Of a DNA stretch of 62,013 bases, positions 10,073 through 62,013 are shown one piece after another. Within the stretch, counting starts at the first letter, position 1, and each line of letters opens with the position of its first letter. The notes under the pieces are model-generated. The model searched no databases and was not told the origin of the DNA. It saw only the letters and a list, made by a program, of their open reading frames with translations. This DNA comes from Acidimicrobiia bacterium. Lineage in GTDB: Bacteria; Actinomycetota; Acidimicrobiia; Spongiisociales; UBA5794. The position numbers were made by a program, and so were the translations under genes. The stretch spans positions 1-62,013 of the forward strand of contig JBPCMS010000034.1 of NCBI GenBank assembly GCA_051002015.1. Reading direction: 5' to 3'.

Positions 10073-10207
10073 CTGTGCCTCGTCGCCCACCGGAGCGGCG
10101 CAGTGCGAGCACTGCTGGCCCAGATATGCGTCCGCCATCGCCCCGTGGGGGCCGTCGCCGCTGAACAGATCGGCCACGAGGACCGCCTGGCTGGTGCCGT
10201 TCTTCAT
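10019..10207 (-). CDS. Small zinc-ribbon protein (hypothetical)
   Basis: 62-aa ORF with high GC3 and two CxxC pairs (CSHC ... CVRC). It overlaps the 3' end of the convergent phosphatase gene by 54 nt. No family is recognised. Confidence 0.4.
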   Translation of the reverse strand: MKNGTSQAVLVADLFSGDGPHGAMADAYLGQQCSHCAAPVGDEAQLSLEGFLCVRCARVFNL

Positions 10208-10230
10208 GCTCCCGGGAGGATACCGGTCGG

Positions 10231-10614: not shown

Positions 10615-10737
10615 CCCCATCCCCGGCAACGGAAACCGCTTGATTCCACCGTGACCCCTGCTATCGTCCCGCCCTCGTCGAACTCCCATCTTGTCAGGTG
10701 CGCCGCGGTGGCGCGCCCTGAGCAGATCGGAGACCCG

Positions 10738-17681: not shown

Positions 17682-19174
17682 CCGCTCGAGACCCTGATCA
17701 GGTCAAGCAGCAAACCAGGCGCCACGCCGAGCAGCAGGGTGACGGTGGCGGTCACCAGCATGGGGCCCACCACGAGAGCGCCGGGCTCCGTGACGAACGG
17801 GGAGCGCAGGAGCCCGGTGGTGTCGCCCGGGCCGCCTGCGCTCACGGCCAGCGGCGCGTCGAACAACGCGGAACGCAGGACCCGCAGGTAATAGCCGGCC
17901 GACAGCAGCGTCGAGACGGCCAGGACGACCAACACCGCCCACTGCCCGGCCTCGACGGCACCCACGAACAGGAAGTACTTGGCGATGAAGCCAATGGTCG
18001 GTGGCAGGCCGATGATCGAGAGCGCGCCGACGGCGAGTGCGCCCATCGTCCAGGGCAGCTGCCTGCCGATGCCCCGTAGCTCGCTGGCGAGGGTCCGGTG
18101 GGAGGCCAGGTACACCGAACCCACGGCGAAGAACAGCGTGATCTTGCTGAACGAATGCCCGACCAGGTGCAGGACCGCGCCGGTGCGGCCACCCGGCGAC
18201 AGCAGCGCCATCCCCAGGATCATGTAGGAGAGCTGCCCGATGGTCGAGTAGGCCAGGATGCCCTTGAGGTTGTCCAGGCGCCGCGCGTGCCAGGACGCCA
18301 CCACGATGGTGACCGAAGCCACCACCAGCGTGAGGACACCCAAGCCGAGCTCGGCGACGAGGTCGGTACCGAACACGTCGAGCACGACGCGCAGCACGCA
18401 GAACACGCCGACATTGACGACGGCGACCGCATGCAGCAGGGCACTCACCGGCACCGGCGCCACCATCGCCGCCGGCAGCCAGGAGTGCACCGGCATCAGC
18501 GCCGCCTTGGCGATGCCCAGCAGGTAGAGCCCGTAGACGATCACGAGCAGCGTGCCGCCGGCGTCGGCGTCAAGGATCCCGCCCCGGACGAAGTCGAAGG
18601 TGCCGGCCTCGATGTAGGTCAGCACGATGGCGGGCAGCAGGAAAGCGATGCCGCAGCCGAGCTGGTAGGCCAGGTAGCGCCGGCCCCCCCGTGCGGCCTC
18701 GGGAGTTCCGGTGTGAGTCACCAGGGGATACGTGATGACCGTCAAGGCCTCATAGAACAGATACATCGTGAGGAGGTTGGCGGAGAACGCAACGCCGATC
18801 GTGGCTGCCATCGTCAGACAGAAAAAGGCGTGGAAGCGGGTCAGCGCCGGGTCGGGAGCAGTCCCGAGATACCCCATGGCGTAGACCGTCGTGAGCACCC
18901 ACAAGGCGGCTGCGGTGCCGGCTAGCACGACGCCGAGGGCATCGGCGCGCAACGCGATCGGTGCCTCCGGCAAGAACGTCGACAGCGTGAAGGAGACGGT
19001 GCCGCCGTCGCCCACCGCGGGCACCATGGTCGCCACCAAACCGAGCTGGGTGATGCCGGCGACGACCCCGCACAGCTCGCGGGCAGGCGTGCGATGGCGC
19101 AGCAGCACGACCCCGGCCGCGCCGAGGACCGGCACCAGCAGCGCCAGCAGCGGGGTCAGGCCGGTGACGTCCAT
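17678..19174 (-). CDS. Proton-conducting membrane transporter, NuoN/MrpD-like antiporter-type subunit
   Basis: 498 aa, polytopic, PF00361-type core (LYLFYEALTVITYPLV.., MPVHSWLPAAMVAPVPVSALLHA, AYSTIGQLSYM). Confidence 0.85.
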   Translation of the reverse strand: MDVTGLTPLLALLVPVLGAAGVVLLRHRTPARELCGVVAGITQLGLVATMVPAVGDGGTVSFTLSTFLPEAPIALRADALGVVLAGTAAALWVLTTVYAMGYLGTAPDPALTRFHAFFCLTMAATIGVAFSANLLTMYLFYEALTVITYPLVTHTGTPEAARGGRRYLAYQLGCGIAFLLPAIVLTYIEAGTFDFVRGGILDADAGGTLLVIVYGLYLLGIAKAALMPVHSWLPAAMVAPVPVSALLHAVAVVNVGVFCVLRVVLDVFGTDLVAELGLGVLTLVVASVTIVVASWHARRLDNLKGILAYSTIGQLSYMILGMALLSPGGRTGAVLHLVGHSFSKITLFFAVGSVYLASHRTLASELRGIGRQLPWTMGALAVGALSIIGLPPTIGFIAKYFLFVGAVEAGQWAVLVVLAVSTLLSAGYYLRVLRSALFDAPLAVSAGGPGDTTGLLRSPFVTEPGALVVGPMLVTATVTLLLGVAPGLLLDLIRVSSG

Positions 19175-19186
19175 GTAGCAATCCCT

Positions 19187-20719
19187 CTAGTCGTCGGCGG
19201 CGACGGCAGTCGGTGGGTTTAGCCGGTCGACGAGGTCATCGACCGACGCGCTGGAGTAGTCGAGCAATGCTGTCGGGAAGAAGCCGAACGCCACGATGGC
19301 GACCCCGAGGATGCCAGCGGTGACGGTCTCGCGCGGTCTCAGGTCGGCGGTGGCGTCCACGATCGTGCTGCGGATACGCCCGTGGAAGGCGCGCTCGAAG
19401 AACCCGAGCACGTAGGCGGCGGCGAGGATCACGGTCGTGACCGCAATGGCCACGGGCCAGCCGTGGGCGCGGAAGGCGCCGAGCAGGATGAGGAACTCGC
19501 CGGGGAAGCCGCTGGTGCCGGGCAGCGTGGCCGCACCGAGGCAGGCGATCAGGGCGAATGTCGCCAGCGCCGGGGTGCGCTGCGCCAGGCCGCCCAGGGC
19601 GGCGAGGTCGGTGCTCCCGACGCGCTGGTGGACGAAGCCCGCTACCAGCAGCATCGCGGTCGAGACCAGGCCGAGGTTCACGAGCAGGAACAGCGCGCCC
19701 TGCAATCCCGGGGCGTTGAGGCTGGACAGCCCGAGCATGGCCAAGCCAACATGGCTGACGCTGGCGAAGCCGAGCAGGCGCCGCAGGTTGGACTGGACGA
19801 GCGCGATGAGCGCGCCGTAGAGCACGGCCGCCACGCCGAGGGCGGCGATCAGCCAACTCCATGCTGCGAACGCTTCGGGTACCAGCGGCAGAACGAAGCG
19901 CACGAACCCGAACACGCCCATCTTGAGCCCGCCGAGGAACACCGCCATGCCGATGGGGCCTTCCAGCAGGGTGGTGGGCATCCAGGCATGGAAGGGGAAC
20001 ATCGGGGCCTTCAGGGCGAAGGCGAAGGCGAGCAGGAAGAACACCGCCGTCTGCGTGCCGAGCGGCACCGGCGAGTCCATCAGCACCAGAAGATCGAACG
20101 ACAGCGCGCCCCCGGATCCGGGTGCCGAGCGGTAGCTCACACCGAGCATGATGAAGCCGGCCAGCAGCGCGGCGGATCCCAACAGCATCGACAGCACGTA
20201 GCGCAGCGCCGCCCGGCCGCGCTGCGGCCCGTCACCCCAGACCTTGATGAGCACATAGGTGGGGATCAGCATGAGCTCCCAGAACACGAAGAACAGGATC
20301 AGGTCCACGGCGACGAACACGCCGATGGCGGCGGTCTCGAAGGCCAGCACCGCCATGAGGTACGCCTTGGGCTGGTACCGCACCGCGGTCCACGACGAGA
20401 GCATGACGACGACGACCAGCAGGGCGGTCAGCGGCACGAACAGGACGCTCACGCCGTCGACCGCGAGGTGATAGCTCAACCCGATCGACTCGATCCACGG
20501 AAGCTGCTCGGCGAACTGGAAGTCGGTCGTGTCCCGTTGGAAGCCCACCGTGAGGAGCAGCGACAGGCCGAGCACGGCTACCGCACCCGCCAGTGCCACG
20601 CGGCGCAGGGCGCGGTCCTTGCGTACGAAGCCGAGCGCAACCATGGTGACGACCGGCAGGAACACCAGCGTGGACAGGATCGGGAAGCCGGCCTGCTCGG
20701 CGGCCGTGATCTCGTTCAT
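19187..20719 (-). CDS. NuoM/NdhD-like antiporter-type subunit (paralogue 3)
   Basis: 510 aa. Has LSYHLAVDGVSVLFVPLT, FFVFWELMLIPTYVLI, PFHAWMPT.. and ASVSHVGLAML. There is a 4-nt overlap with the upstream gene. Confidence 0.85.
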   Translation of the reverse strand: MNEITAAEQAGFPILSTLVFLPVVTMVALGFVRKDRALRRVALAGAVAVLGLSLLLTVGFQRDTTDFQFAEQLPWIESIGLSYHLAVDGVSVLFVPLTALLVVVVMLSSWTAVRYQPKAYLMAVLAFETAAIGVFVAVDLILFFVFWELMLIPTYVLIKVWGDGPQRGRAALRYVLSMLLGSAALLAGFIMLGVSYRSAPGSGGALSFDLLVLMDSPVPLGTQTAVFFLLAFAFALKAPMFPFHAWMPTTLLEGPIGMAVFLGGLKMGVFGFVRFVLPLVPEAFAAWSWLIAALGVAAVLYGALIALVQSNLRRLLGFASVSHVGLAMLGLSSLNAPGLQGALFLLVNLGLVSTAMLLVAGFVHQRVGSTDLAALGGLAQRTPALATFALIACLGAATLPGTSGFPGEFLILLGAFRAHGWPVAIAVTTVILAAAYVLGFFERAFHGRIRSTIVDATADLRPRETVTAGILGVAIVAFGFFPTALLDYSSASVDDLVDRLNPPTAVAADD

Positions 20720-22281
20720 CTGCCCACGACCTCCGGTCGACCCATTGTCATCGCGGAACCTGCTGCGTCCTCGACCAGCTGCTCGACAGCCATCAACGAC
20801 GGGCGCATCGTCTGGATGAAGGGGCCGGTGCCGAGACCGATCCAGAAGATGAGGGCGGCGAGGGTGAGCACTATGCCGCGCTCGCGGCCGGTGAGGTCGT
20901 AGACGCGCTCGACCACCGCGGGTCGCGCCGCACCCATAAACCCCCGCTGGAAGTACGACAGCGAGTAGGCGGCCGTAAGGAAGACACCGACACCGGCGGC
21001 GATCGCCATCGACCAGTGCTGCTCGTAGGCGCCGAGCATGACCAGGTGCTCGCCGTTGAACCCGTTGGTACCTGGCAGTCCGATGCCGGCGAGGGCGATG
21101 ATCAAGAACGTGCCGGTCAACAACGGCGCGTGGTGGACCACCCCGCCCAGTTCACCTACCTCGGGCGGGCCGACCCGGGTGAACAGGAACCCGGCGACGA
21201 AGAACAGCCCGGCGCCAACGATCCCGAGGTTGACCATCTGCAGCAGGCCCCCCTCGAAGCCATCGAGGTTGAGCGAGAACAGGCCCAGCATCACCACGCC
21301 CATATGTGACAAGCTGGCGAAGGCCAGGAGGCGACGCAGGTTCGTCTGCCCGAGCGCCAGCAACGCCCCGTACACCGTGCCCGTGACCCCGAGCATCGCC
21401 ATCAGCCAGAACCAGCCGGAGGCGGCGCCGGGCAGGAGCGGGATCACGAAGCGCAAGAGCCCGTAGGTGCCGAGCTTGACGCCGACGAGGAAGACGCTCA
21501 TGCCGACGACGGGGCCGTGCTCGAGCACCTTCGGCAGCCACGTGTGGAAGGGGAAGATCGGCGCCTTGATGGCGAAGCCGAAGAACAGCAGGAAGAATAT
21601 CAAGGTCTGGGCCTCGGCGGGCACGCCGACCTCGAGCAGTTCCAGCAGTTCGAAGCTGTAGCCGTCGCCGGTGATCCGGGCGTGGTTGCGGCCTAACAGC
21701 AGGATGCCGGCGAGCATGAGCGCCGAGCCGACGGCCATGAACACGACGTACTCGCCGGCGGCACGCCGCCGGGCGGCACCGGTGCCCCAGCGCGTGATGA
21801 GGAACCAGCTCGGCACCAGCTCAACCACGAAGAAGAACCAGAACACGACCAAGTCGAGCGAGGCGAAAGCACCGATCATGGCCGCCTCCAGCGCCAACGT
21901 GGCCACCGCATAGGAGCGTGCGTCGCCGGTGCGGCTGCTGGCGGTGGCGTGCTCGGCATAGACGATCACCAGCAGGCCGAGCAGCGCGGTCAGCGGGATG
22001 AACAGCAGGTTGACCCCGTCGACGCCGAGATGCCAGCTGACGCCGAGCACCTCGGCGGAACGCTCGACGAACTGGAGGTCGGCGACACCGGCATTGAACC
22101 GCAGCGCCAGGAAGGCGGCGAGGACAGCCTCGAGCCCTGCGCCGCCGATGGCCACGGTCGTCGCCGCCCGGTCGTTGCGGACGAACTGCAGCACCGCGCA
22201 GATGACGAGCGGCAACGCGATCAGCACCGACAGGATCGGGAAGCCCACCTGCTCGGCGGCCATGACCTCGTCGAGGTTCAT
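20716..22281 (-). CDS. NuoM/NdhD-like antiporter-type subunit (paralogue 2)
   Basis: True start is ATG 22279-22281 (MNLDEVMAAEQVGFPILS), overlapping the upstream stop as ATGA. Has VSWHLGVDGVNLLFIPLT, PFHTWLPKV and ASLSHMGVVML. The ORF-track extension to 23001 is read-through. Confidence 0.8.
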   Translation of the reverse strand: MNLDEVMAAEQVGFPILSVLIALPLVICAVLQFVRNDRAATTVAIGGAGLEAVLAAFLALRFNAGVADLQFVERSAEVLGVSWHLGVDGVNLLFIPLTALLGLLVIVYAEHATASSRTGDARSYAVATLALEAAMIGAFASLDLVVFWFFFVVELVPSWFLITRWGTGAARRRAAGEYVVFMAVGSALMLAGILLLGRNHARITGDGYSFELLELLEVGVPAEAQTLIFFLLFFGFAIKAPIFPFHTWLPKVLEHGPVVGMSVFLVGVKLGTYGLLRFVIPLLPGAASGWFWLMAMLGVTGTVYGALLALGQTNLRRLLAFASLSHMGVVMLGLFSLNLDGFEGGLLQMVNLGIVGAGLFFVAGFLFTRVGPPEVGELGGVVHHAPLLTGTFLIIALAGIGLPGTNGFNGEHLVMLGAYEQHWSMAIAAGVGVFLTAAYSLSYFQRGFMGAARPAVVERVYDLTGRERGIVLTLAALIFWIGLGTGPFIQTMRPSLMAVEQLVEDAAGSAMTMGRPEVVGR

Positions 22282-24695
22282 CGAGTGCCCACGATCAGGG
22301 CCAGGAGCGCCAGCGCCAGGATGCTGCCGATGACCATCGGATGGCCCAGACGCCGCTCGATCGCCAGCAACAGCCGTTGGGCGCTCGCACCTGCGCTCTC
22401 CAGACCGCGCTCCACTCCGCTCTGGAAGACAGCTCGCTCCACGGCGTCGGTGATCCCGGCGATGATTCCGGTCAGCTTCAAGGCGCCGGTGTCGATCGGT
22501 TGGAAGACGGCCCGCTCGATCCTCTCGGCGAGGCCCGCAAACGCGTTGGCGACCGCGCCGAACACGCCACCCGTGTCGGCCGGTCGTTGGAAGACGGCCC
22601 GCTCGATCCGCTCGACGAGGCCGGCAATCACATCGGCGACGGTGCCGAATACGCCGCCCGTGTCGGAGGCGCGCCTGGCGGTGGCGCCCATCCGCGCAAC
22701 GGCACCGCGGGGGTGGTCCTGCCCCGAGTGGACGGCGCCGGTCGCTGCCGGCAGCCAATCGAGAGGCTCGGGCGCTTCGGCGAGTGCGGTGGCCCCGGTC
22801 TGCCGGCTGCGGAGGGCGGCGAACCGCGCCTCCCAGGTTGCGGACAGGGACACGCCTGGCCCAGTTGCCGGCGCCGGCGGTGGGGCGGGGCGGTCGAGCA
22901 CCGCCATGTCGAAGCGTTCGAGGGCGCGGCCCAGCGCCGCTGTCGGAGCAACGATGGCGCGACCGTAGAAGTCGTCGAGGTAGCCGCGGTTCAGCCCCCA
23001 CCAGTACAGGCGGCGCATGGCGGCAGGGCCCGCCGAGGCCGGCAACTCCTCCCGGAAGCGGTCGAGGTAGCGCGGGCCATACCAGCCGGAGAGCAACAGC
23101 AGGGCGATGGTGCCGGTGAAGACCGCGGTGAGGAGCACGTTGCCCAACGGCACGTCGACGCTGCCTGCGGCGACCTGGCCGAGCAGGCGCTGGAACCAGG
23201 AGCCGTCGAGCCCGCCGGGCAGGACGTCGACGGCCAAGCCAAGGGCGACGAGGCCGGCGAGGACGCCAAGGGCCACAACCAGGCGAGCCGTGGGGGTGCG
23301 GCTTGGCCGGCCCGCCTGGTGGGAAGGGCGATCATCGGCGCCATGGCCGGCATCGCTGGCGTGGTCCTCGTCGCCGGTATGACCGGCGAAGGCGACCGCA
23401 GTCATGCGCCGTGTTGAGAAGACCGCGGCGAAGGCCGCCATCACCGCCAGCGCCAGCACCACCCAGAAGTTCCCGGTGAGGCCCCCGGCCGACTGGAGCA
23501 CACGGCCGACCAGAGGTGCCGACAGCAGTCCCGCCGCCGCCACCAGGGCAACTACGGCCAGCGGGCGGGCAGTGCCCGCCGGGCGGCGCACCGCGGTCGG
23601 ATCAGGGCCGCCGTGGAGGTGGTGCAGGATCGACGGCGCGGTCAGGAACAGGTAACTCTTGTAGAAGGCGTGCGCCACCAGGTGGAAGATGGCGACGGCG
23701 TACAGCCCCAGGCCGCAGAACAGGAACATCAACCCGAGCTGCGCAGTGGTCGAGGCCGCCAGCATGCCCTTGATGTCGGTCTGCACGTAGCCGACGAGCT
23801 GCCCGTACAGCGCCGTCACCGCGCCGATGATGCCGACGGCGATCAGCGCGGTCGGCGCCTGGTCGTAGATCGGTGCCGAGCGCACCACGAGATAGACACC
23901 GGCGGTCACCATCGTCGCCGCATGCATCAGCGCGCTGGACGGCGTAGGCCCTTCCATCGCCCGCGCCAACCAGGTCCCAAGCGGCAGCTGCGCCGACTTG
24001 CCGGTGGCGCCGAGGAGGAGCAGCAGGCCGACCCCCTCGACGACGCCCCGCGGTAGGGCTGACGCCTGTGTGAAGACCTCGCCGTACTGCAGCGTGCCGG
24101 TGTGGGCGACCAGGACGAACATCGCGATCAGCAGAGCGGCGTCGCCGACACGGTTCATGAGGAACGCCTTCGTCCCGGCCTGGGCCGAGGCCGGACGGTC
24201 CCGGTAGAAGCTGATGAGCAGGTAGGAGCAGACCCCGACCCCCTCCCAGCCCAGGAACATGACTAGGTAGCTGTCGGCCATGACGAGGACCAGCATGGCG
24301 AACACGAACAGGGACAAGACGGTGAAATAGCGGGTGAAGCCGTGCTCGTTGTGCATGTAGTTGACCGAGAAGCGCGTCACCAGCGCGCTGATGCCGGTCA
24401 CCACGAGCATCATGACCACGCTCAGCGGGTCAAGCAGGAACCCGAAGTCGACGCTGAGGTCGCCGCTGTGGATGAAGCGGTAGATCGTGACCTGGCGCGT
24501 GCCCGGTTGCGCCACCATCGTCGCGGCGAGATACAGGCTGGCAAAGAAGGAGGCGAACACGGTCGCGACCGCGACCCGGGCAACGGTCACGTGCCCGTAC
24601 AGGCGCTCACCGGAGAGGGCGTTCAGGCCGTTGGCCACGGCGGCGCCCAGAGGTAGCGCGAAGACGGCGACGGCAACCAGCTCGAAGGCGCTCAC
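22278..24695 (-). CDS. dabB: NuoL/NdhF/MrpA-like subunit, DabB-type partner of DabA, with long repeat-containing C-terminal extension
   Basis: GTG 24693-24695 overlaps the dabA stop (GTGA). The core is NuoL-like (FGFLLDPLSVVMMLVVTGISALV.., FLGWEGVGVCSYLLI, GKSAQLPLGTWLARAMEGPTP). The distal ~370 aa carry a NuoL lateral-helix-like segment (YLDDFYGRAIVAPT..ERFDMAVLD), three ERAVFQ repeats and a final TM helix. Confidence 0.85.
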   Translation of the reverse strand: MSAFELVAVAVFALPLGAAVANGLNALSGERLYGHVTVARVAVATVFASFFASLYLAATMVAQPGTRQVTIYRFIHSGDLSVDFGFLLDPLSVVMMLVVTGISALVTRFSVNYMHNEHGFTRYFTVLSLFVFAMLVLVMADSYLVMFLGWEGVGVCSYLLISFYRDRPASAQAGTKAFLMNRVGDAALLIAMFVLVAHTGTLQYGEVFTQASALPRGVVEGVGLLLLLGATGKSAQLPLGTWLARAMEGPTPSSALMHAATMVTAGVYLVVRSAPIYDQAPTALIAVGIIGAVTALYGQLVGYVQTDIKGMLAASTTAQLGLMFLFCGLGLYAVAIFHLVAHAFYKSYLFLTAPSILHHLHGGPDPTAVRRPAGTARPLAVVALVAAAGLLSAPLVGRVLQSAGGLTGNFWVVLALAVMAAFAAVFSTRRMTAVAFAGHTGDEDHASDAGHGADDRPSHQAGRPSRTPTARLVVALGVLAGLVALGLAVDVLPGGLDGSWFQRLLGQVAAGSVDVPLGNVLLTAVFTGTIALLLLSGWYGPRYLDRFREELPASAGPAAMRRLYWWGLNRGYLDDFYGRAIVAPTAALGRALERFDMAVLDRPAPPPAPATGPGVSLSATWEARFAALRSRQTGATALAEAPEPLDWLPAATGAVHSGQDHPRGAVARMGATARRASDTGGVFGTVADVIAGLVERIERAVFQRPADTGGVFGAVANAFAGLAERIERAVFQPIDTGALKLTGIIAGITDAVERAVFQSGVERGLESAGASAQRLLLAIERRLGHPMVIGSILALALLALIVGTR

Positions 24696-27600
24696 GACCG
24701 GGTCACCGTCCCGTCGCGCGGGCCGGTGGTCCCGATCAGGACGGGAGGCAGGAATCCCTCCTTGCCGCGGTAGTACTCGTACGAGGTCCCGACGACCGGT
24801 AGGTCGGGGACCCGCTCGTCCCAAGGCACGAAGCCCTCGCCGGCCACGAACCGGGTGAACGTGCCTGCCTGTGGGTCCATCGCCACCAGGTGCACCCACT
24901 CGTTGTCGAGCAGCTCGGCAATCGCCGGCTGGCGCGTGTAGATGTCGCCGAGCACGTCGAGCGTGGCCTCGACGATCAACAGCAGGCGCATCGGCTCGTG
25001 GATCTCGATCATCTGCCGCGGTAGCCCGGTGCGCAGATCGCTGGCCGCCCCCTCCATGACCCCGAGGAGGCCCGACACGTTGTGGGGTACCTTGGTGTCA
25101 CAACCGTAGACCCGGTTGTCGACGCTGGAGAAGTAGTACTCGAGATTGATGCCCGCCCCCACCGGGCCCATGGCGAGCAAGATGCGCTCGACGATGGCGC
25201 CCGTCGGGTCCTGGGTGGGGTCGTAGGAGATGACGAAGCCGCGACGGTCAAAGAACACCCCTTGGGTGAGGCAGCGGCGGCCGACGACGGCGAAGGCGTT
25301 CGTGCAATGGCCCCACTCGGGGCGGACCTGCGACAGGTCGCGGCTTCGACTCTCGACGTGGCGCAGGCCCACGGCCGGGGTGGGGTCCTTGGGCGCCGAC
25401 CCGAACCTCCGGCAACGCTCGCGTGCCGAGTTGGCGCGCGCCTCCTCGAGGTCGGCGCGCAACGCCTCCCACTCCGCAGCGTGGCTGGCGGGGATGTCGG
25501 TGGTGTCGAAGAACACCATCTGGTCGCTGGCGGTGTTGTGGATCGCCCCCACGAAATGCGTGTCGTCGGGGATGTCGATCCCGCGCTCTCGCAGCAGCGC
25601 CCGCACCACCGTGCGGTTGGCCAGCCCGGCGAAGGCGCGGCCGTTGGGACCACCGTGCTTACCGCCGCACGCACCGCAGTCGTGGGCCGACTCGTGGGGG
25701 TTGTTGACAGACACCGACCCGTGCCCGCAGAAGACGACGAGCCGGGCGAAATGGTGGGTCATGCCGATGTTGCGCAGCTGCGCCTCGACGCGGTCGACCT
25801 GCTGGACGGTCTCGAAGCCGCGGCCAAGGTCGTCGTGATCCAGGGTGAGCAGGGTGGGCGGCCTCGGAACGAGCCGGCGGCGCGCCATTTCGGCCAGCTC
25901 GGTCCACCGCCGGGGGGCCAACACGCGGCCGGCCAGCGGCACCGCTTGTACGAGGCCGGTCAACTGGGTGAGGAAGAACGCCGAGACGGCGTTGCGCTTG
26001 GACTCCCAGTAGGTGTTGTGGAAGACCTCCTCCCAGGCACGGAGCGCGCTACGGCGTTCGGCCACGGGGACGGCCTCGGGACGCGGGACCTCCTGGACCC
26101 GGTTCGCCGGGGTCACGTTGGCGGGGCACAGCGGTGTGACCGTGTGGTCGTCGAGTCCGCGGTAGTCCATGGCGACGCCGAAGAAGCCGCCGGCGCCGAA
26201 CGTCTCGTAGCCCGGGTCGAGCTCGTCGAACGCCCGGTGTATGGACTCCTCGCGCTCGTCGATGCAGAACACCACCTGCGCCTTGGGCCGATCCGGGCGA
26301 TCCCGCCAGCGACCGCGTCCGCGGTTGGCGGCGAGCGCGCCCAGGATCTGCTCGCGGTAGTGGCGCTCGAAGGCGGCCAGCCAGACGGGGCGGTGCGCCG
26401 ACTCGGGGAAGCCGTCGAGGACGGCGAGCAGGCGGTCGCGGACCGTCGCCGGAAGTACCCGCACGTCGGCCGCCGACCACCCCTGCAGTTGCGCCAGACG
26501 GAACAAGCGCCACGCGTGGTCATGCGCCCGGAACAGCGGGCGGGCGCCATCGAGCTGCTCGTGATAAGCCCACGCCTTGTCGGCGAGAAGGATCCAGCTT
26601 GCGTCGATCTCACCTCCGACGGGGAGCTCGTGCACGGAACGGGCCAGGAAGGAGGGCAGGGTGCCGGCTACCGCCTCGGCTCGCAGCCAGACCTCGTGCG
26701 GGCGGGCGCGCAAATGAGCGACGAGGTCGGCAGGTTCCAGGTTCCAGGTGCGGCGGGTCACATTCGTGACCAGCTGGACCTCGACGAACAGGCGGACGGC
26801 GAGGTACTGCACAAGGCTGGTGGGTTGAGCCTGTTGCCGAGGAAACTGGGGGTTCGTTCCGCGCCAGTTCATCATTCCGGCCCATCCCGGCAGACCGGTC
26901 AGGACCCGCCCGACGTAGCTGCCCCAGTGCTCCTCGCCGACGCCGAGGCGCATGAGCAGCGCGATGACGGCATCCTCGGGGGGCTCGGGCAGTGCAGCCG
27001 CCTCCTCACGCCAGCCGGGCAGCCCCTCCAGGTCCAGCGCATGGTCGTGCGGCGCGGCTCGGCGCCAACCCTCATAGAAGCCGAGCGTGCGATCCGGCAT
27101 GCGCCAGGCCGCCTGACCGAGGTCGAGAAACGCCGCACAGCGCCGGATGAGGTAGCGGTTGACCCGCTCGACGATGTCCTCGCCGACCAGGGCGTGAACG
27201 AGGTCGGCATGTGTCCGGTCGCGGCCGACGCGGTCGAGTTGGGCGCGGGCCACCGTCTCGAGGTGAGCGGCCAGCCGCCGCCGGGAGTCATGGGTCCGCA
27301 CCTCGTCGGCGAGGGATTGCAGTGCGCTGCTCGTTGCACCGTCGGGCTGGCGCGCCAGGTCGTAGAGCGCGTCGGCGCCCTGGCGCGACAGTCCGCCAGC
27401 GTCGGTGTCCGCCATGACGAACCATGCGGCGCACGCCGCCTCGCGCAGCGGGGGCTCATCGGCGGCGCCGGGCTCGTCGGCGGCGCGGCGGCGCAGGCGG
27501 TCAAGTGTCTCACCGGCGGCGACGCGGACCGACGAGCGAAGGTCGCCGGGCAGGGGCACAGCGGGCCCGCCCCAGCGCTCGATGTCGGCGAGTCCCTCGG

Positions 27601-28603
27601 CGACCCGCTCGCCGACCCCATCGGGGTCACGCGCCATCAGGGTCACGGGGTCGGTCGGCCCGTACGGGTCGGTGATGGCGAATGCGGCCAGACAGGCATG
27701 CCATAGCGAGGCGACGGCGTAGCCTTCGAGGTCGCGGGCACAATTGGCCTCGAGCGCATCGAGCGTGCCCCGGGTTCCGAAGTGGCGCCGTGCCAGGCCC
27801 CGCACGACACGGGCTTCGGCCTCGAGCCACAGCAGCCGCGTGTGCTCCTGGCCACGGCCGGTATCCCGCAGGCCATGGCAGTGCGCGTCCACCGCGGCGA
27901 GATACCCCTCCTGCCGATTGGCGGGAACGCCCAGCACGCGCAGCAGTCGCCCGACGGGCGCGCCGGTCGATGTGGCATCGGCCGCCAGGTGTGTCTCGGC
28001 GTCGCCGAGCACGGCGGCGGGCGCATCCAGGTCGAGCAACGCGCCGAGCCAGTCCACCAGCGTCCAGCCGGCCCCGATGCGTTCGAGGCTGGCGGCGAGC
28101 TCCTGTTGCGAGCGGCTGAGCAGCCGCGCCCGGGCGGCCACCGAGACGTCGGCGGCTATGCGGCGGCCGGCGTCGCCCGATGTCATGGCGTCGCGCAGCA
28201 CGGCGGGAGGGACGGCAGTCGCCCCATACAGGAGGTGCAGCTTGCGAATCTCGCCGTCGGAGATGGTGCGACCGCCAACCGTGCCGAGCACCTCGGCGGG
28301 GTCGAGCTCTGGGCGCATGGCGAACACGGCGTCCAGGTCGGCGTCGGCGATGCGGCCGGCGCGGTACCGGGCGCGTCCCAGGTCGACTGGCTCGTAGGCA
28401 CGGCCGCCGAGCAGCTGCTCGGCCTCGGCGACGGCGTGCTCGAACGGCTTGTGCTGCAGCCCGTGCAGGGTGTTGTGGTGGACGAACGTCGTCATCGGGC
28501 CTTGGCTGGGAAGCAGGTGGCCCCAGTGCTCGAGCTCGTGGGCGAGGTGTGCCCGGTGGTCCGCGAGCACCGCCGTCGACGTTCCGGGCGTGGGTGTGGT
28601 CAT
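24692..28603 (-). CDS. dabA: DUF2309 / UPF0753 protein, DabA-type (beta-carbonic-anhydrase-like subunit of DAB inorganic-carbon pumps), oversized at 1303 aa
   Basis: Family hallmarks are [19 protein letters not shown] near the N-terminus, [11 protein letters not shown] (Cys780-x-Asp782) and [26 protein letters not shown] (His961 and Cys976, 15 residues apart). Confidence 0.9.
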
Positions 28604-28613
28604 CGATGCACGG

Positions 28614-30071
28614 TCAATCGCTCAGCGCGGTCATGGCGCGAACGGTGGCGTCGATCAGGCCGAGCGCCAGGCCCGGGAGTACCCCCAGCACCACGGTCAG
28701 AATCGCCAGCGGCACCGCCGCAGCCAACTCGCGGCCGCCCAGGTCGGCCATGCCCTTCCAGCGGGCGTCGAGTTCGCCGGTGAACATCGAGGAAATGACC
28801 CGCAACGTGAACGTGGCGGTCACGAGGATGCCGAGGAGGGCGAACAGCACGAACAGGCCCCAGCGCTCGAACGCGCCGATCAGTGTCTGGAACTCGCCCA
28901 CGAACTGGGCGAGACCCGGCAAGCCCATCGACGCCAGCAGGCCCAGCACGGTGAGGCTCGTGTACACCGGCACCTGTCCGCTGAGGCCCGACAGCTGCCC
29001 GAGGTCCATCGTGTGGGTGCGGTCATAGATGATGCCGACGAGGAGGAACAGCCCGCCGGTGATGATGCCGTGGGCAAGCATCATGAACACCGCCCCGGAC
29101 ACGCCCGTCACGTTCAACGCCGCAATCCCCAGCAACACGAACCCCATGTGGCTGATCGAGGAGAAGGCGACAATCGCCTTGAGGTCGGTCTGGCGGAAGG
29201 CGAGGAAGGCACCGTAGAGGATGTTGACCAGCGCCAAGACGAACAACCAAGGCAGGAACGCCTCCAGGCCCAGCGGCAGCGTGTCGGCGACGCGCAGCAG
29301 GCCGTAGGCACCGAGCTTGAGCAGGACGCCGGACAGCATGATGCTCACCGGCGTCGGCGCCTGCACGTGGGCCAGCGGCAGCCAGCCGTGCAGGGGAAAC
29401 ACCGGGATCTTGACCGCGAAGCCGATGAAGAAGGCGAGGAACGGCGCGATCTGGAAACCGCGGGTCCACCCACCGCTGGCCGCCTCGAGCGCCGCCATGT
29501 CGAAGGTGTGCGGGTCGGCGGCGAGGTAGACCGCGAAGATGCCGAGCAGCATGAGGACCGAGCCGCCCAGGGTGTACATGAAGAACGTCAGCGTCGCCCG
29601 CGCCTTCTGCGGGCCGCCCCACATCCCGATGAGGAAGAACATGGGGACGAGGGCGATCTCCCAGAACACGTAGAACAGGAACCAGTCGCGCGCCACGAAC
29701 ACGCCGAGGATGGAGAACTCCAGCAGCATCATCCAGGCGAAGTACGCCCTGTGGTTGTGGTCCACCTTCAGCGACGCGATCAGGGCGACGACCGTGAGCA
29801 GGGTCGTGAGCAGCATCAGCGGAAAGCTCAGCCCGTCCACGCCGAGCGTGTAGGTCATGCCGAGCTCGGGGATCCAGGTCGCCTGCTCGGTGAACTGCGG
29901 ATTTGATGAGGAGCGGTCGAAGCTAGTGAGCAGGCCCCATGAGAGCACGAGGGTGCCGCCGGCGACAGCCAGGGCCACGCCCTTGGCGAGTGCAGCCTGA
30001 CCGCGGGGGAGCAGCAGGATCACGACCAGCCCGACGATGGGCAGCCAGGTGATGACGGTGAGGATTCCCAT
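28614..30071 (-). CDS. NuoM/NdhD-like antiporter-type subunit (paralogue 1)
   Basis: 485 aa. Has MTYTLGVDGLSFPLMLLT, FYVFWEIALVPMFFLIGMWGG, FPLHGWLPLAHV and SSISHMGFVLLG. The stop is 10 nt upstream of the dabA start. Confidence 0.9.
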   Translation of the reverse strand: MGILTVITWLPIVGLVVILLLPRGQAALAKGVALAVAGGTLVLSWGLLTSFDRSSSNPQFTEQATWIPELGMTYTLGVDGLSFPLMLLTTLLTVVALIASLKVDHNHRAYFAWMMLLEFSILGVFVARDWFLFYVFWEIALVPMFFLIGMWGGPQKARATLTFFMYTLGGSVLMLLGIFAVYLAADPHTFDMAALEAASGGWTRGFQIAPFLAFFIGFAVKIPVFPLHGWLPLAHVQAPTPVSIMLSGVLLKLGAYGLLRVADTLPLGLEAFLPWLFVLALVNILYGAFLAFRQTDLKAIVAFSSISHMGFVLLGIAALNVTGVSGAVFMMLAHGIITGGLFLLVGIIYDRTHTMDLGQLSGLSGQVPVYTSLTVLGLLASMGLPGLAQFVGEFQTLIGAFERWGLFVLFALLGILVTATFTLRVISSMFTGELDARWKGMADLGGRELAAAVPLAILTVVLGVLPGLALGLIDATVRAMTALSD

Positions 30072-55993: not shown

Positions 55994-56056
55994 ATGAACG
56001 GATGGAGGACCTTGACGTGGTGGTGGCGCACGCAGCGAGGTGCTCGCACGCCCTGA
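55994..56056 (+). CDS. trpL: trp operon leader peptide (20 aa, MNGWRTLTWWWRTQRGARTP)
   Basis: ATG 55994 to TGA 56054-56056. Four of the 20 codons are TGG, three of them consecutive (56018-56026). It lies directly upstream of trpE and is followed by a hairpin plus T-rich tail. Confidence 0.7.
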   Translation: MNGWRTLTWWWRTQRGARTP

Positions 56057-56084
56057 TCCGCTCCGACCACCCCACCTCGCCGCC

Positions 56085-56115
56085 AGACCTCCGCTTCCCG
56101 GAGGTCTTTGTCATT
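56085..56115 (+). terminator. Candidate trp attenuator terminator
   Basis: AGACCTCCG-CTTCC-CGGAGGTCT (56085-56107) is followed by TTGTCATT. An alternative 8-bp pairing, GCGAGGTG (56035-56042) with CACCTCGC (56073-56080), links the leader ORF to the region 5' of the terminator. Confidence 0.5.
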
Positions 56116-56136
56116 CCCAGAACCACTCGAGGACCC

Positions 56137-57343
56137 ATGACCCCCACCTCCGGCTGCGCGACGCGGGCAGGGCAAGCTTCCTGCTCGGGTCCGTTGAACG
56201 GGGCCGGCTGGGCCGCAACTCGTGGATCGGGGCCGGGGATCGCATCGCCACCCTCGACAAGGCCGCCGCCACCGGGCTCCCCGTGGTCGGCTACCTGGGC
56301 TACGACGCCGTCGCCGCGCTGGAGCCGACCGTGACGCTCCCCGCGGACGGGCACGGCTTCCCGGATAGCCGGGTGGTGGTCGCCGACACCCTGGTGCGGT
56401 TCGACCACGGCGCCGGGATCGCCGAGGTGCTCGCCGGCGACCCCGACGAGATCGTCGGCAGGCTCGACGGGGGTGTCCCGTGGCGCCGGGATCGCCGAGG
56501 TGTCGCCGGGCCGCTGCGCCGCCACCCGGGCCGGGAGCGTAATGAGGACATGGTGCGCCGGGTGAAGCGTCACATCGCCGCCGGCGACGTGTTCCAGTGT
56601 GTGCCGTCGCAGCGGGCGGAGCGCCCCACCTCGGCCACCCCGCTCGACATCTACCGGACGCTGCGCCGGGTGAACCCTTCGCCCTACCTCTGCCTGCTCG
56701 AGCTCGACGGGATCGCCCTGATCGGCTCGTCTCCGGAGCGGCTGGTCGCTGCCAAGGACGGAGTCGCCTCGCTGTGTCCCATCGCCGGGACCACCGACGC
56801 CTCGGACGGCGACGCGGCGCGGCTGCTCGGCTCGGAGAAGGAGCGGGCCGAGCACATCATGCTGGTCGACCTGGGACGCAACGACCTGTCCTGGGTCTGT
56901 CTCCCCGGCACCGTCACCGTCACCCGCTCGCTCGAGGTGGAGCGGTTCAGCCACGTCTCCCACCTCGTCTCCGAGGTGGTGGGCTCCATCCGCCCCGGGC
57001 TGTCGTCGCTCGACGTGCTGGGCGCCTGCTTCCCGGCCGGTACCGTCACCGGCGCCCCCAAGGTGCGGGCCATGCAGCTCATCTCGGAGCTGGAGGGGTT
57101 CCGCCGGGGCCCGTGCGCCGGGGCGGTGCTCTACCTGCTACCCGACGGGACCATGGACGCCTGCATCGCCCTGCGGACGATCGTCGTCGCCGACGGGATA
57201 GCCTACCTGCAGGCGGGGGCCGGGGTGGTGGCCGCTTCCGATCCCGCCGCCGAGCACGAGGAGTGCCTGCGCAAGCTGGCCGCCTTGGAGATGGCGATCG
57301 ACCGGGCCGAGGTCGAGTTCGCCCTGGCGGGGGCGGGTCGCTG

Positions 57344-57344
<1 letters not shown>
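56137..57344 (+). CDS. trpE: Anthranilate synthase component I (compact type), with apparent 1-nt frameshift just after the likely ATG
   Basis: The TrpE frame reads ..[30 protein letters not shown].., [29 protein letters not shown] and GAPKVRAM. This frame is open from 56040 (the ORF-track start), but that overlaps the leader and attenuator. ATG 56137 after GAGGA is one frame off. See the finding. Confidence 0.8.
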
Positions 57345-57918
<574 letters not shown>

Positions 57919-57922
<4 letters not shown>

Positions 57923-58852
57923 CCGGTTCGCCCATCGTCCTCCGGGCCATCGACACCCTGCTCGAGGGTGCCGACCTGTCGCGTGCGGAGTCCCGCAACG
58001 CCATGGACGAGGTGATGGAAAGCGCCGCCACCTCCGCCCAGATCGCCGGGTTCCTGGTGGCGCTGCGGGCGAAGGGGGAGACGGCGGACGAGATCACCGG
58101 GTTCGCCGAGGCGATGCGGGAGCGGGTGGTTGCGGTCACCCCCACCCGGGCACCGCTGATCGACGTGGTCGGCACCGGTGGCGACGGTGCCGGCACCTTC
58201 AACATCTCCACCACCGCCGCCATCTTGGCCGCCGCCGCCGGGGCCGCCGTGGCCAAGCACGGCAACCGGGCGGCCAGCTCGGACGCCATCCTGGTCGGAT
58301 CGACCCTGATGCGCGCCACCGATCCCGCCGCCGCCCTGGTCGAGCTGCTGGCCCGGCCCCTGGTCAAGGTGTGCGGGTTGACCCGACCCGAGGACGTCGC
58401 CGCCGCCGCTGCGGCCGGGGCCGATCTTGCCGGCTTCGTCCTCGTCCCCGACAGCCCCCGGGCCGCCGCCGTCGTGCTCCCGGTGCCCGAGGGGATGCTG
58501 TCGGTGGCGGTGTGGGTGGGGGAGCCGGGCACGAGCCCGGCCGATCTCGACCAGGTCCACGACCGGCGGGCGGGCGCGGTGCGAGGACCACGGGCCGACC
58601 TGCTCCGTGCCGGTCGCACCGTGGCCACCTTCGTCGACCGGGCCTGGGGTGCCGGTGGGAACGACCATTGGGCGGAGGCCGCAGCCACCGAGGGCAGAGT
58701 GGTGCTCGCCGGTGGACTCGGGCCCGACAACGTCGCCGACGCCATCGCCGCCGTCAACCCATGGGCGGTGGACGCCTCGTGGTCGCTGGAGCAGCCCCGG
58801 GGTGAAGGACCACGACCGGATCCGGGCATTCGTCGAGGCGGTGCGGCGATGA
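57919..58852 (+). pseudogene. Chimeric remnant: trpD N-terminal ~121 aa fused in frame to the last ~25 aa of trpC and a trpF-like domain (frameshifted near its end)
   Basis: TrpD motifs are present up to [29 protein letters not shown]. At 58282 the sequence switches to [19 protein letters not shown] (TrpC tail). It then reads [33 protein letters not shown] (TrpF). The TrpF end [19 protein letters not shown] is in another frame (stop 58850-58852). Confidence 0.75.
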
Positions 58853-59927
58853 GCCTCACCGAGACCTTCGGTCCCTATGGGGGGCGCTACGTCCCCGAAA
58901 CGCTGATCCCGGCGCTCGACGAGCTGGCCGATGCCTGGGCGTCCGCCCGAACCGACCCGGCGTACCTGGCCCAGCTCGACCACCTGGGCGCCACCTACGT
59001 GGGGAGGCCCTCCCCGCTGACTGCGGCGGATCGGTTCGCCCCCGACCGGCGTCTCTACCTGAAGCGGGAGGACCTGAACCACACCGGCGCCCACAAGATC
59101 AACAACGCCCTTGGCCAGGTGGTCCTGGCGGGGCGGCTGGGCAAGCGGCGGATCATCGCCGAGACCGGGGCCGGGCAGCACGGGGTGGCAACGGCTACCG
59201 CCTGTACCCGGTTCGGGCTCGATTGCGTGGTGTACATGGGGTCCGAGGACATGCGACGCCAGCGCCCCAACGTGGAGCGGATGGAGCTGCTCGGGGCAAC
59301 CGTGGTGCCGGTGGAGATGGGGACCCGCACCCTGAAGGAGGCCACCAGCGAGGCGATTCGCGACTGGATCACCAACGTCGAGAGCACCCATTACGTGATC
59401 GGGTCGTGCGTCGGTCCCTCACCCTATCCGGAGATGGTGGCGAGCTGCAGGCGGTGATCGGCCGGGAATCCCGTCGACAGATACTCGAGGCGTACGGATG
59501 GGAGCGGTTCGACGCCGACGCTCGCGCCGCCGGAGCCACCGGGTTCATCCTCGCCGACGTTCCCGCCGGGGTCCGCCCCGAGTTCCGCCGCATCCAGCTC
59601 GTCGCCCCCACCTCCACCGACGAGCGGATCGCCCTCGCCGCCGCCGACACCGATGGCTGGCTGTACCTGGTGACGGTCGCCGGCACCACCGGGGCCAGGG
59701 AGGCGCCGTCGCCGGCCCTCGCCGGTCTGGCTCGGCGGGTTCGATCGCTCACCTCGGTGCCGCTCTACGCCGGTTTCGGGATCTCCACTCCCGACCAGGC
59801 GGCCGCCGCCGCCTCGCTCACCGACGGGGTGGTGGTCGGATCCGCCGCCGTCACCGTCGCCGCAGAGGGCCCGGGGGCGCTCGCCGGGTTGGTGCGCTCG
59901 CTCCGCACCGCCATCGACGCCGGCTGA
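58849..59927 (+). pseudogene. Chimeric remnant: trpB N-terminal ~215 aa (frameshifted) fused to the C-terminal ~140 aa of trpA
   Basis: TrpB reads [43 protein letters not shown], then a stop in frame. The next frame continues [19 protein letters not shown]. At ~59499 it jumps to TrpA sequence (ERFDADARAAGATGFILADVP..LVAPTSTDERI..GWLYLVTVAGTTG..PLYAGFGIS..DGVVVGSA). Confidence 0.75.
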
Positions 59928-60119
59928 CACGCGATACCGGCGTCGCGCATCGTCAAGGGACGTCCATGCTCCACGTGATCGGCCCACTGTCGGCGCAAGT
60001 GGAGCCGGATCCATATACGAAGCCAAGCCCTGCCCAACAGCACAGGCGGTCTTCAGACCCTCGCCTCGAGACACCGGCGGGAGCAGCCACAGCCCACCAA
60101 GCGGTCCCGGTTTCGGATG

Positions 60120-60731
60120 TCACCCCCGGGGTTCCGGGAGGTCGTCCACGGCGGTGGTCTCGCCGATGAGCAGCAGGTAGCCGTCCTCGATCGTGGGCTC
60201 GATGGTGGTGGCGCCGTGGGGGGCGCCACCGATGTGGCGGTAGTGGCCGTCGCCGGTTCGCCACACCACCCGGGCCTGCGGATCGCGATGGCCAGCGACC
60301 CAAACCTGACCAGCGGCCGCTTCGACGAGCCGGCGCGGGGTGCCACCGAACACCACCCGTCCATGATCCAACACCAGTACCTGCTTGCACAGCGTGGCGA
60401 TGTCGTCGGTCTGGTGGCTGGACAGGAGCACGGTGCGGTCCTCGGCGAGCCGGGAGATGGTGTCACGGAACCGGAGCCGCTGCTCGGGATCGAGGCCGGC
60501 GGTGGGCTCGTCGAGGACGAGCAGCTGGGGATCGCCGATCAATGCCTGGGCGAGGGCGACCCGACGCCGCATACCCCCCGAGAGCGCCCAACTTTGCGTA
60601 GGTTGAGAACGGCGTCCCACACCAAGTTGGTCGGGCTCGGTTGCCAGCGCTGCCGGTCGGATCGCTCCCGCGATGCATACCGGGCCGTCCGCTTCGAGCG
60701 CATCCGCCGGCGCGACGTTGTATGAGTCCAA
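60120..60731 (-). pseudogene. ABC transporter ATP-binding protein remnant lacking the Walker A region
   Basis: Contains the signature LSGGMRRRVALAQAL, Walker B LLVLDEPTAGLD and an H-loop SSHQ plus a C-terminal domain. No GxxGxGKT/S is present in the ~45 residues preceding the signature. Confidence 0.65.
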
Positions 60732-60859
60732 GGGCGCAGCACCGCCCCAAGATTACGTGTAGTGTTCGTGCAGGTGGGTAGCTGCGGAAGAACAGCAGCC
60801 CTCAGCTCTCTTGCCAGCGAGCTGGTGGGCGGCGTCCAAGGTCAACCAGGGGGGTTGCG

Positions 60860-62013
60860 GTGGACAAGGGGTACGAGGTCTTCTGTCTTGTCGACCCGCT
60901 CTTCTACGACTCGCCCACTCTCCCCCGCGGTGACGACGTCGACTTCGAGATCGCTCGTGGTCCCGTTCCTGAGGGATGGGACCGCTCCCAGCTCGACGAC
61001 TGGCTGGTGTACCGGCCCGAAGGCCTCCCGTTCCCCTCCCAGGGATGGAAGATCCACGTGTCGGCCTGTCTGGACAACGCCGAGGCGGTCCTCGCCGTGG
61101 TGCACCAGTACTGCGTCCGGGCGCGGATCCCGTTCAAGTTCGTACGCAGCCGCCGGCTCCTGCTCCTCTGCAACGCCAAGTACGCGGATCGGGCGTCGAG
61201 CGGCAAGTTCATCGCCATCTACCCCGCCGACGACGCCGAGCTGAAGCTCGTGCTGACCGAGCTGGGCGAGCGGCTGGAGGGCCAGGCGGGGCCCTACATC
61301 CTGAGCGACCTGCGGTGGGGCGAGGGCCCGCTCTACGTCCGCTACGGCGGGTTCGCCGAGCGGTACTGCGTCGGCGCCAACGGGGAGATCGAGCCGGCCA
61401 TCGAGGATCCGACCGGGGCCCTGGTCCCCGACCAGCGTGGGCCCACGTTCAGCCCGCCGCCCTGGGTCCCGCTCCCGGACTTCCTCGCACCGCACCGAGC
61501 GGCGCGCGACCGCGCCACGTTCCAAGAGGTGCCGTACCGCATCGACGCCGCCCTGCATTTCTCCAACGGCGGCGGCCTGTACGCAGGCGTGGACCTGCGG
61601 ACCGGCGAACAGGTCGTGCTCAAGGAGGCACGCCCGTATGCCGGGCTGGCCACCGACGGGACGGATGCGGTGGTACGCCTGGCCAACGAGCGCGAGATAC
61701 TCGAGCGCCTGGCCGGACTCGACGTCGTGCCCGCCCTGCGCGACGACTTCGTCCTCGGGGAGCACCACTTCCTCGTGCAGGACCTCGTCGACGGTACGTC
61801 ACTGAGCGATCTCCTGGCCGACCGGTATCCTCTGGCGCTTCCGGAGGTTGACGGCGCCGCCCTCACCGAGTACACCGAGTGGGCCCTCGACGTCTGCGAC
61901 CGGGTGGAGCGGGCGGTCGCCGCCGTCCACGACCGGGGCGTGGTCATCGGCGACCTCCACCCGTCAAACGTGCTGGTCCGCCCCGACGGCGGCATCGTGC
62001 TGATCGACTTCGA
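60860..62013 (+). CDS. Class III/IV lanthipeptide synthetase (LanKC/LanL-type), N-terminal lyase and kinase domains; continues beyond window end
   Basis: Not in the ORF track because no stop lies inside the window. GTG 60860 after AGGGGGG. My translation is VDKGYEVFCLVDPLFYDSP..GWKIHVSA..ARIPFKF..SGKFIAIYP (lyase domain), then GGGLYAGVDLRTGEQVVLKEARP..HDRGVVIGDLHPSNVLV..LIDF (Ser/Thr-kinase-like). It is open to base 62013. Confidence 0.85.
   Translation, partial: MDKGYEVFCLVDPLFYDSPTLPRGDDVDFEIARGPVPEGWDRSQLDDWLVYRPEGLPFPSQGWKIHVSACLDNAEAVLAVVHQYCVRARIPFKFVRSRRLLLLCNAKYADRASSGKFIAIYPADDAELKLVLTELGERLEGQAGPYILSDLRWGEGPLYVRYGGFAERYCVGANGEIEPAIEDPTGALVPDQRGPTFSPPPWVPLPDFLAPHRAARDRATFQEVPYRIDAALHFSNGGGLYAGVDLRTGEQVVLKEARPYAGLATDGTDAVVRLANEREILERLAGLDVVPALRDDFVLGEHHFLVQDLVDGTSLSDLLADRYPLALPEVDGAALTEYTEWALDVCDRVERAVAAVHDRGVVIGDLHPSNVLVRPDGGIVLIDF

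Follow-up and report, generated by a model that had tools for sequence, protein, structure and literature searches.

A predicted ramC/amfT-type class III lanthipeptide synthetase gene cut by the end of a soil actinobacterial contig, and the operon it probably heads

We analyzed a stretch of 62,013 nucleotides from an Acidimicrobiia bacterium (contig JBPCMS010000034.1 of assembly GCA_051002015.1), referred to below as the window, and focused on a gene that runs off its end. We estimate at about 90% the probability that positions 60860-62013 of the + strand represent the first 384 codons of an intact and selectively maintained lanKC gene of the ramC/amfT type. This gene would encode a class III lanthipeptide synthetase of 877 aa and would be the first gene of a ramCSAB/amfTSBA-like operon, whose product is most likely a surface-active peptide of the SapB/AmfS kind. 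The window retains codons 1-384 of the 877, and the rest of the gene and operon was recovered from public metagenomes.

By direct reading, the + frame contains a TAG codon at 60779-60781 and is then free of stop codons from 60782 through the window end at 62013. No ATG, GTG or TTG is found in 60782-60859, and GTG 60860 is the first possible start of lanKC. The coding portion present in the window covers 60860-62011, i.e. 384 codons, plus two extra bases. A ribosome-binding site, AGGGGGG (60848-60854, +), precedes the GTG by 5 nt (TTGCG) and is the same in the window and in the three related metagenome contigs described below (L037, L038 and L039). Since homologues from other actinobacteria begin at the same residue (query residues 1-384 matched), the start at GTG 60860 is well supported. 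An earlier, sequence-only reading of the window had described this frame, its start, the AGGGGGG 5 nt upstream and the length of 384 aa, all of which we reproduced. The GC content of the fragment by codon position is 0.76/0.44/0.90, in surrounding DNA of 70% GC; this is the profile of a real gene and is far beyond chance. The gene is missing from the lists of open reading frames (ORFs) because the ORF tool drops those running off the end of a sequence. The segment 60732-60859 (+), which begins where the similarity of the window to L037 and L039 begins, is a candidate promoter and 5' untranslated region for the lanKC module. A scan upstream of lanKC for sigma-70 consensus promoters and terminators found nothing.

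The translation contains the motifs YEVFCLVDPLFYD, GWKIHVSA, IPFKF, SGKFIAIYP, VVLKEARP, GDLHPSNVLV and LIDF. The sequence-only reading had quoted these motifs and had taken them for a lyase-type N-terminus followed by a Ser/Thr-kinase-like domain, and Pfam and structure matches confirmed both the order and the identity of the two domains. Pfam RamC_N matched aa 29-218 (E=1e-81, model positions 2-190/191), delimiting a putative phospho-Ser/Thr lyase domain of the OspF/SpvC type which lies wholly inside the window (60944-61513, +). The Pfam protein kinase domain follows, and its match is cut by the window end at model position 142/263. Based on the match to structure 7WJ6 and on an alignment with ThurKC, the N-terminal part of the kinase domain corresponds to aa 223-384 (61526-62011, +), with a predicted leader-recognition region at about aa 222-309; this domain of the kinase was defined in PMC9828337. 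The best structure matches were the CurKC kinase domain 7WJ6 (PMC9828337) and entries of the TherKC, SalKC, ThurKC and PneKC type.

The choice between class III and class IV had been regarded as undecidable from the fragment. The profile scores indicate otherwise. The NCBIfam model for class III LanKC, NF038151, gave 571.9 bits (E=3e-171), with aa 5-384 aligned without a break on positions 1-380/833, versus 299.5 bits for the class IV LanL model. NF038151 is an equivalog model with a whole-protein cut-off of 575 bits (650 for the class IV model, NF038150), and the fragment came within 3 bits of this cut-off using 46% of the model. Judged by these family matches, the gene is a class III lanthipeptide synthetase (LanKC, RamC/AmfT type), a class already clear from the fragment.

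No near-identical genome was found in the genome collection, where the best relatives, from Actinomadura, Sphaerisporangium, Streptomyces and metagenome-assembled genomes (MAGs) of Egibacteraceae and Solirubrobacteraceae, were 55-62% identical. Full-length homologues in the retrieved loci were 850-902 aa long; the homologue matches of one protein search were all of 670 aa or less, and no weight was given to these lengths. Three metagenome contigs carrying the gene were retrieved by an exact-pattern scan. L038 was 99.6% identical to window positions 59800-62013 and stopped at the same base as the window, and L039 also terminated at the window's last base. L037 was 95.7% identical over 60732-62013, ran on for 7.8 kb and encoded an 877-aa LanKC. 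Moreover, four soil and sediment sequencing runs contained 97-100% of the window 31-mers (100% for runs X1 and X2). Unitigs from the runs were identical to the window over 57367-62013 and tiled the downstream region of L037 with an identity of about 97-98%; the last 1.5 kb of lanKC was free of indels. We therefore rebuilt the gene of the window population by applying the listed unitig substitutions to the downstream sequence of L037. Extended and translated in full, the frame continues beyond the window as 877 uninterrupted codons without a stop. The rebuilt gene and the L037 allele differ by 37 synonymous and 21 non-synonymous codon changes (rough ratio of non-synonymous to synonymous substitution rates, dN/dS, of about 0.2), which suggests that lanKC is under purifying selection.

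We also considered whether the closest LanKC homologues are naturally split proteins. In L040 (around 7571-7575) a 1-nt shift occurs in a G-run at the conserved TGGLN and is most likely a homopolymer error; natural splitting was rejected on the evidence of L040. The closest homologues (L040 and P0001) are annotated as two genes, lyase-kinase and cyclase.

The rebuilt 877-aa protein scored 1105 bits on the class III model (positions 1-831/833), versus 417 bits, below the cut-off, on the class IV model. The CurKC kinase domain 7WJ6 matched aa 223-473 with E=2e-90. To locate catalytic residues, we mapped LanKC through its ThurKC alignment onto the residues mutated by Hernandez Garcia and Nair (PMC10604976). 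The lyase set was conserved (K64, H66, K93, K107, K116, D150, R161 and R193, for K65, H67, K94, K108, K117, D152, R163 and R191 mutated in ThurKC; PMC10604976), K93 being the Lys of IPFKF and K116 lying within SGKF. In the kinase domain, K255 (in VVLKEARP), R273, E277, D365/N370 of the catalytic loop (GDLHPSN) and D383-F384-E385 (LIDFE) were likewise conserved; the ThurKC counterparts include K257, E279 and D382-F383-E384 (PMC10604976). The window stops two residues into the DFE motif, and E385 and the C-lobe come from the rebuilt continuation. The C-terminal part, outside the window, gave a weak match to Pfam LANC_like. In this part, the positions of the zinc ligands of NisC (Cys284/Cys330/His331; Ser726/Phe770/Asp771 in ThurKC; PMC10604976) are occupied, by alignment, by Ala730/Phe774/Tyr775 in both the rebuilt protein and L037. 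As the zinc ligands are absent, the cyclase would be of the zinc-independent class III type.

We then turned to the DNA beyond lanKC. In L037 a 30-aa ORF starts 4 nt past the lanKC stop, behind GAAAGGAGG, and encodes the peptide MAILDLQGIELERAPALHRRRRSRLSLTLC. This putative precursor carries a Ser-x-x-Ser-x-x-x-Cys motif; an LxxLxxL-type leader followed by this motif is the published definition of leader and core (PMC9828337). Three further natural variants were read from unitigs: variant A in runs X1-X3 (MAILDLQGIELERAPALHRRRSRLSLILC), another in run X4 (MAILDLQGIELERAPALHRRRSRLSLILCGR) and variant B in runs X1-X3 (MAILDLQGIELGSTPAASHHKRHSRLSLILCGR). The precursor has the general form MAILDLQGIEL…SRLSLILC and a length of 29-33 aa. 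The four variants differ by in-frame indels (-3, +3 and +6 nt) and by substitutions in the linker, which is basic (Arg/His/Lys-rich); the leader and SRLSL(I/T)LC are constant. That the variants keep the frame, the leader and the ring motif is good evidence that this frame is coding. The precursor scored 31.4 on the NCBIfam SapB/AmfS model NF033212 (cut-off 25), and the precursors scored 27.7-31.2 on Pfam RamS PF19402 (cut-off 24.3), spanning only positions 1-33/44, about three quarters, of the family model.

In all relatives examined, the small gene after the synthetase encodes a leader with (A/I)LDLQ or LFELQ and two Ser-x-x-Ser-x-x-(x)-Cys motifs, and the Streptomyces loci among them encode RamS itself. 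The closest relative with readable DNA, L040, has the two-ring precursor MAILDLQGLEVEQGTAARGSRRSRRCGASRLSLLLC. By comparison, the window-type precursor looks like a derivative which may have lost the Ser and Cys of the first ring and kept the basic character and the C-terminal hydrophobic ring. We rejected the idea that the poly-Arg linker arose by a double frameshift from a poly-Gly linker (GGC repeats read as CGG): L040 already has an in-frame Arg-rich first ring, GSRRSRRCGA, and in variant B the other frame lacks a Gly run and the third is interrupted by stops.

The precursor gene is followed by a 23-bp hairpin (-56 kcal/mol, z = -7) and, in L037, by two genes for ATP-binding cassette (ABC) permease/ATPases. 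The order lanKC, precursor, ABC, ABC is common to 10 relatives, including Streptomyces loci with true RamS, and each ABC protein is 47-65% identical to the one in the same position in 10 loci, true ram loci included. The sequence-only reading had predicted that a locus for a ribosomally made peptide modified after translation goes on downstream. This was borne out, as L037 and the unitigs carry a LanC-like cyclase domain, an SxxSxxxC precursor and two ABC exporters. Two outcomes that it had named as speaking against its proposal, a frame closing at once beyond the window and a downstream region with no cyclase or precursor, were looked for and neither occurred.

Characterised homologues and families point to the following pathway. 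The leader-recognition region of the kinase domain would bind ILDLQGI of the 29-33-aa precursor, and the kinase domain would phosphorylate both Ser residues in its only S-R-L-S-L-I-L-C motif, at the C-terminus. The N-terminal lyase domain would then remove the phosphates by beta-elimination, leaving dehydroalanines. Addition of the Cys thiol by the zinc-independent cyclase domain would form one labionin, or else one lanthionine while leaving a dehydroalanine free, the pattern of each SapB half. The two ABC half-transporters would export the peptide, and the leader would be cut by a protease encoded elsewhere. The peptide expected from these steps would be small and amphiphilic, combining a hydrophobic ring with a basic (Arg/His/Lys-rich) tail, and its most likely role would be that of a SapB/AmfS-like surface-active peptide.

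The locus also occurs in the metagenomes in a second form. Here 60854/60855 is connected to 61887 by a junction unitig, found in five runs that come from three studies, and 17-19 other letters (…GTCGGGGGTGGAGATGGCT…) stand in place of the segment 60855-61886 (+). Missing from this form are the first 1032 nt of lanKC, which include the start codon and encode the lyase domain and the N-lobe of the kinase. Intact and deleted forms had depths of, respectively, 9.1 and 6.5 in run X1, 31.3 and 23.9 in X2, 84 and 92.3 in X3, 20.3 and 21.2 in X4, and 14.2 and 15.1 in X5. In all runs the depth doubled from 61887 on, and the double-depth segment reached about 445 nt into the first ABC gene. Inside this segment the precursor forms a two-allele bubble, in which the depths of variant A (8.6/33.4/61) track the intact form and those of variant B (7.3/25.8/88.2) track the deleted form. 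The deleted form thus seems to be linked to a diverged precursor (…GSTPAASHHKRHSRLSLILCGR). The two forms may be two loci of one genome or belong to two co-occurring strains, and the unitigs fit both. The flank of the second copy was found neither in the window nor in any retrieved locus. The branch at 61887 lies 126 nt before the last base of the window and of the two independent contigs L038 and L039, which suggests that their shared end reflects a k=127 assembler stopping at an unresolved branch and not a biological end. The gene is cut at the window end, then, because the assembly graph branches at 61887, where the intact and 5'-deleted forms converge.

Several observations weigh against the proposal of an intact synthetase gene making a SapB/AmfS-like peptide. 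The window itself holds only 44% of lanKC, and the remainder was taken from the same population in other samples. Three RNA-Seq runs from soil each yielded a single 151-nt contig, 98-100% identical to lanKC within 61272-61948; this RNA evidence, restricted to one such contig per run, is only a faint hint of transcription, as carry-over of DNA is possible, and the product is deduced from sequence. The variant of the precursor that goes with the intact copy was assigned by depth alone. All four variants carry a single Ser-x-x-Ser-x-x-x-Cys motif and lack the two-ring feature of SapB/AmfS, and Asp771, the proposed cyclase base of ThurKC, is replaced by Tyr775. Neither a regulator nor a leader protease was found near the operon in the DNA available. 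In particular, no regulator of the RamR/AmfR type was present in the window over some 6 kb upstream of lanKC, nor along the L037 stretch; past the ABC genes there is a TetR gene. Finally, the deleted form equals the intact one in abundance and the genes immediately upstream are decayed, so that part of the population, or one of two copies, has really lost the function.

This last point can be carried further, to the proposal that the lanKC copy in the window is itself a decaying remnant in a rearrangement-prone region and that the organism makes no mature peptide. The trp genes (57919-59927) and the ABC ATPase gene (60120-60731) just upstream are indeed fragments, in five runs the form without 60855-61886 matches the intact form in depth, the double-depth segment stops about 445 nt into the first ABC gene, and no regulator was found. 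However, the window copy and its continuation make an unbroken 877-codon frame with all catalytic residues, its differences from L037 are mostly synonymous, the precursor variants preserve frame, leader and ring, and single-depth unitigs span both complete ABC genes. We consider a remnant improbable. Still smaller is the chance that the enzyme is a LanL, a synthetase of class IV whose cyclase depends on zinc and forms ordinary lanthionine rings like those of venezuelin-type peptides. There is a match to the class IV model (fragment, 299.5 bits; full length, 417), but 417 bits is far under both the cut-off of 650 and the class III score of 1105. Ala730/Phe774/Tyr775 stand at the zinc-ligand positions (PMC10604976), and a precursor of the RamS/AmfS family speaks against class IV. 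We regard this assignment as ruled out by the hidden Markov model scores and the zinc-ligand positions.

A third alternative accepts a functional operon and questions only the role of its product, which would be an antimicrobial, a signal or some other bioactive labionin peptide instead of a SapB-like surfactant or morphogen. We hold this as possible, on balance unlikely. The host looks like a member of the Acidimicrobiia, which are not known for aerial hyphae, the precursor appears to have lost its first ring and has an Arg/His/Lys-rich linker, and varied activities have been reported for class III peptides (PMC8341899). Most class III peptides nevertheless show weak or no antibacterial activity (PMC8341899). 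In addition, the peptide is accepted by both curated RamS/AmfS models, and the ring SRLSLILC is closely like the hydrophobic rings of SapB/AmfS-type relatives, hydrophobicity being the property tied to morphogen activity (PMC13380574). A SapB/AmfS-like surface-active peptide remains the product that we favour.

Similarity between the window and L037/L039 stops abruptly at 60732, 128 nt upstream of lanKC, and everything upstream differs: at 9110-10929, L037 carries an unrelated 216-aa ORF and a PNPOx-family gene in place of the trp and ABC remnants. As similarity begins only at 60732, the module lies in different neighbourhoods in close relatives. Most genes of the window match their families end to end, unlike the 3 kb just upstream of lanKC. 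Abutting the module is a 5'-truncated ABC ATPase gene (60120-60731, -) with LSGG and Walker B and no Walker A, which matched Pfam ABC_tran only at positions 105-137/137 and NCBIfam models of ABC ATPases only in their C-terminal halves. The ABC similarity begins at about 60594, the same point as a doubling of read depth (60592-60749). Further upstream, nothing seems to be missing from trpE (56040-57344) or trpG (about 57350-57922). After these two there is a fused open frame (57919-59457) made of TrpD aa 1-122, most of TrpF and TrpB model positions 2-198/385, and then an ORF (59223-59927) for the C-terminal half of TrpA (model positions 101-236/256 only); TrpC is absent from this distal trp string (57919-59927). 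A chimeric assembly of the trp and ABC fragments was ruled out, as unitigs of four runs from two studies matched 57367-61916 at every base and at an even depth.

The DNA probably comes from an actinobacterium of soil, uncultured and Acidimicrobiia-like. This attribution of the host, of moderate confidence, comes from one gene: the IlvD encoded in the window is 80-82% identical to proteins of Acidimicrobiia MAGs, and no other class was named among the best matches. Elsewhere in the window, at 17678-30071 (-), four Proton_antipo_M genes (NuoL/M/N or Mrp-type) surround a very long DabA-family gene. Its product has 1303 aa, over which the 747-position Pfam model is spread from aa 26 to 1237, implying large insertions. 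This cluster suggests a DAB-type system for the uptake of inorganic carbon.

The locus belongs to a well-known kind, the ramC/amfT-type class III lanthipeptide operons; the call is fairly ordinary, and nothing here challenges current understanding. Its moderately unusual traits are a single-ring basic precursor of the RamS family, a probable non-mycelial host and a co-existing 5'-deleted form. The ramC/ramS (SapB/AmfS) type of locus is thereby extended to a soil lineage that is probably uncultured and Acidimicrobiia-like. For annotation, the edge of this window conceals a real biosynthetic gene, the class and whole operon of which are recoverable from public metagenomes. The natural single-ring basic precursor with its in-frame variants offers a compact substrate/enzyme pair for the choice between lanthionine and labionin by LanKC, and the equal depth of intact and deleted forms may interest the population biology of secreted peptides. 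One may go further and imagine a minimal 'half-SapB' kept by an uncultured, probably non-mycelial Acidimicrobiia-like bacterium, with one ring lost and a polybasic tail gained, serving a role other than aerial hyphae (e.g. cationic surfactant, antimicrobial or signal), from a locus existing stably in two forms, in which lanKC is either intact or 5'-deleted, the latter accompanied by the diverged precursor (…GSTPAASHHKRHSRLSLILCGR). We find this scenario doubtful. If it holds, the deleted form would provide a second substrate gene, served in trans, or else represent a 'cheater' genotype that produces nothing of a secreted public good.

We finally compared the predicted system with characterised ones. 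Class IV LanL enzymes (e.g. VenL) have a lyase, a kinase and a leader-recognition region homologous to those of the window enzyme; their cyclase binds zinc via Cys/Cys/His, whereas the window enzyme has Ala/Phe/Tyr and a class IV score below the cut-off. ThurKC of Bacillus thuringiensis (8SAM/8SAO/8SAP) and TherKC (9WOP) have the same three-domain architecture and a cyclase without zinc ligands, and all lyase and kinase residues of ThurKC tested by mutagenesis are kept in the window enzyme. Their cyclase domain, however, is only distantly similar (54-98 bits), and their Ser/Thr-rich substrates with an STxSNxC motif are unlike the window precursor. The best structural relative (7WJ6) is CurKC, which makes curvopeptin in Thermomonospora curvata. 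In the 2026 sub-classification of class III by Zhang et al., CurKC is of class III-d, with substrates carrying SxxSxxxC-type motifs (PMC13504147), and the window enzyme sits with it. The curvopeptin cluster likewise consists of a synthetase, one precursor and two ABC transporters, and has its own regulator, CurR, whereas none was found at the window locus. The CurA leader motif MLDLQGM, which binds the leader-recognition domain of CurKC (PMC9828337), resembles ILDLQGI of the window precursor; the curvopeptin core is also of the SxxSxxxC type, its sequence being otherwise different.

The RamC/AmfT-RamS/AmfS-RamAB/AmfAB systems of Streptomyces differ from the window locus in several respects. 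Their RamS/AmfS has two ring motifs, whereas the peptide of the window locus has 29-33 aa, one motif and a basic linker. They have a ramR/amfR-type regulator, which was not seen in the available DNA here; ramR has been reported only from streptomycetes (PMC4255298). Streptomyces is mycelial, whereas the host of the window is probably neither a streptomycete nor a member of any mycelial genus. In Streptomyces, ramC and ramS together with two transporter genes, in the order ramC-ramS-ramA-ramB, make and export SapB (PMC4255298). The same order of synthetase, precursor and two ABC exporters is found at the window locus, where the synthetase shares 54% identity with its counterparts in loci with true RamS (L013 and L022), and the precursor has the same type of leader, (A/I)LDLQ, and passes both family cut-offs.

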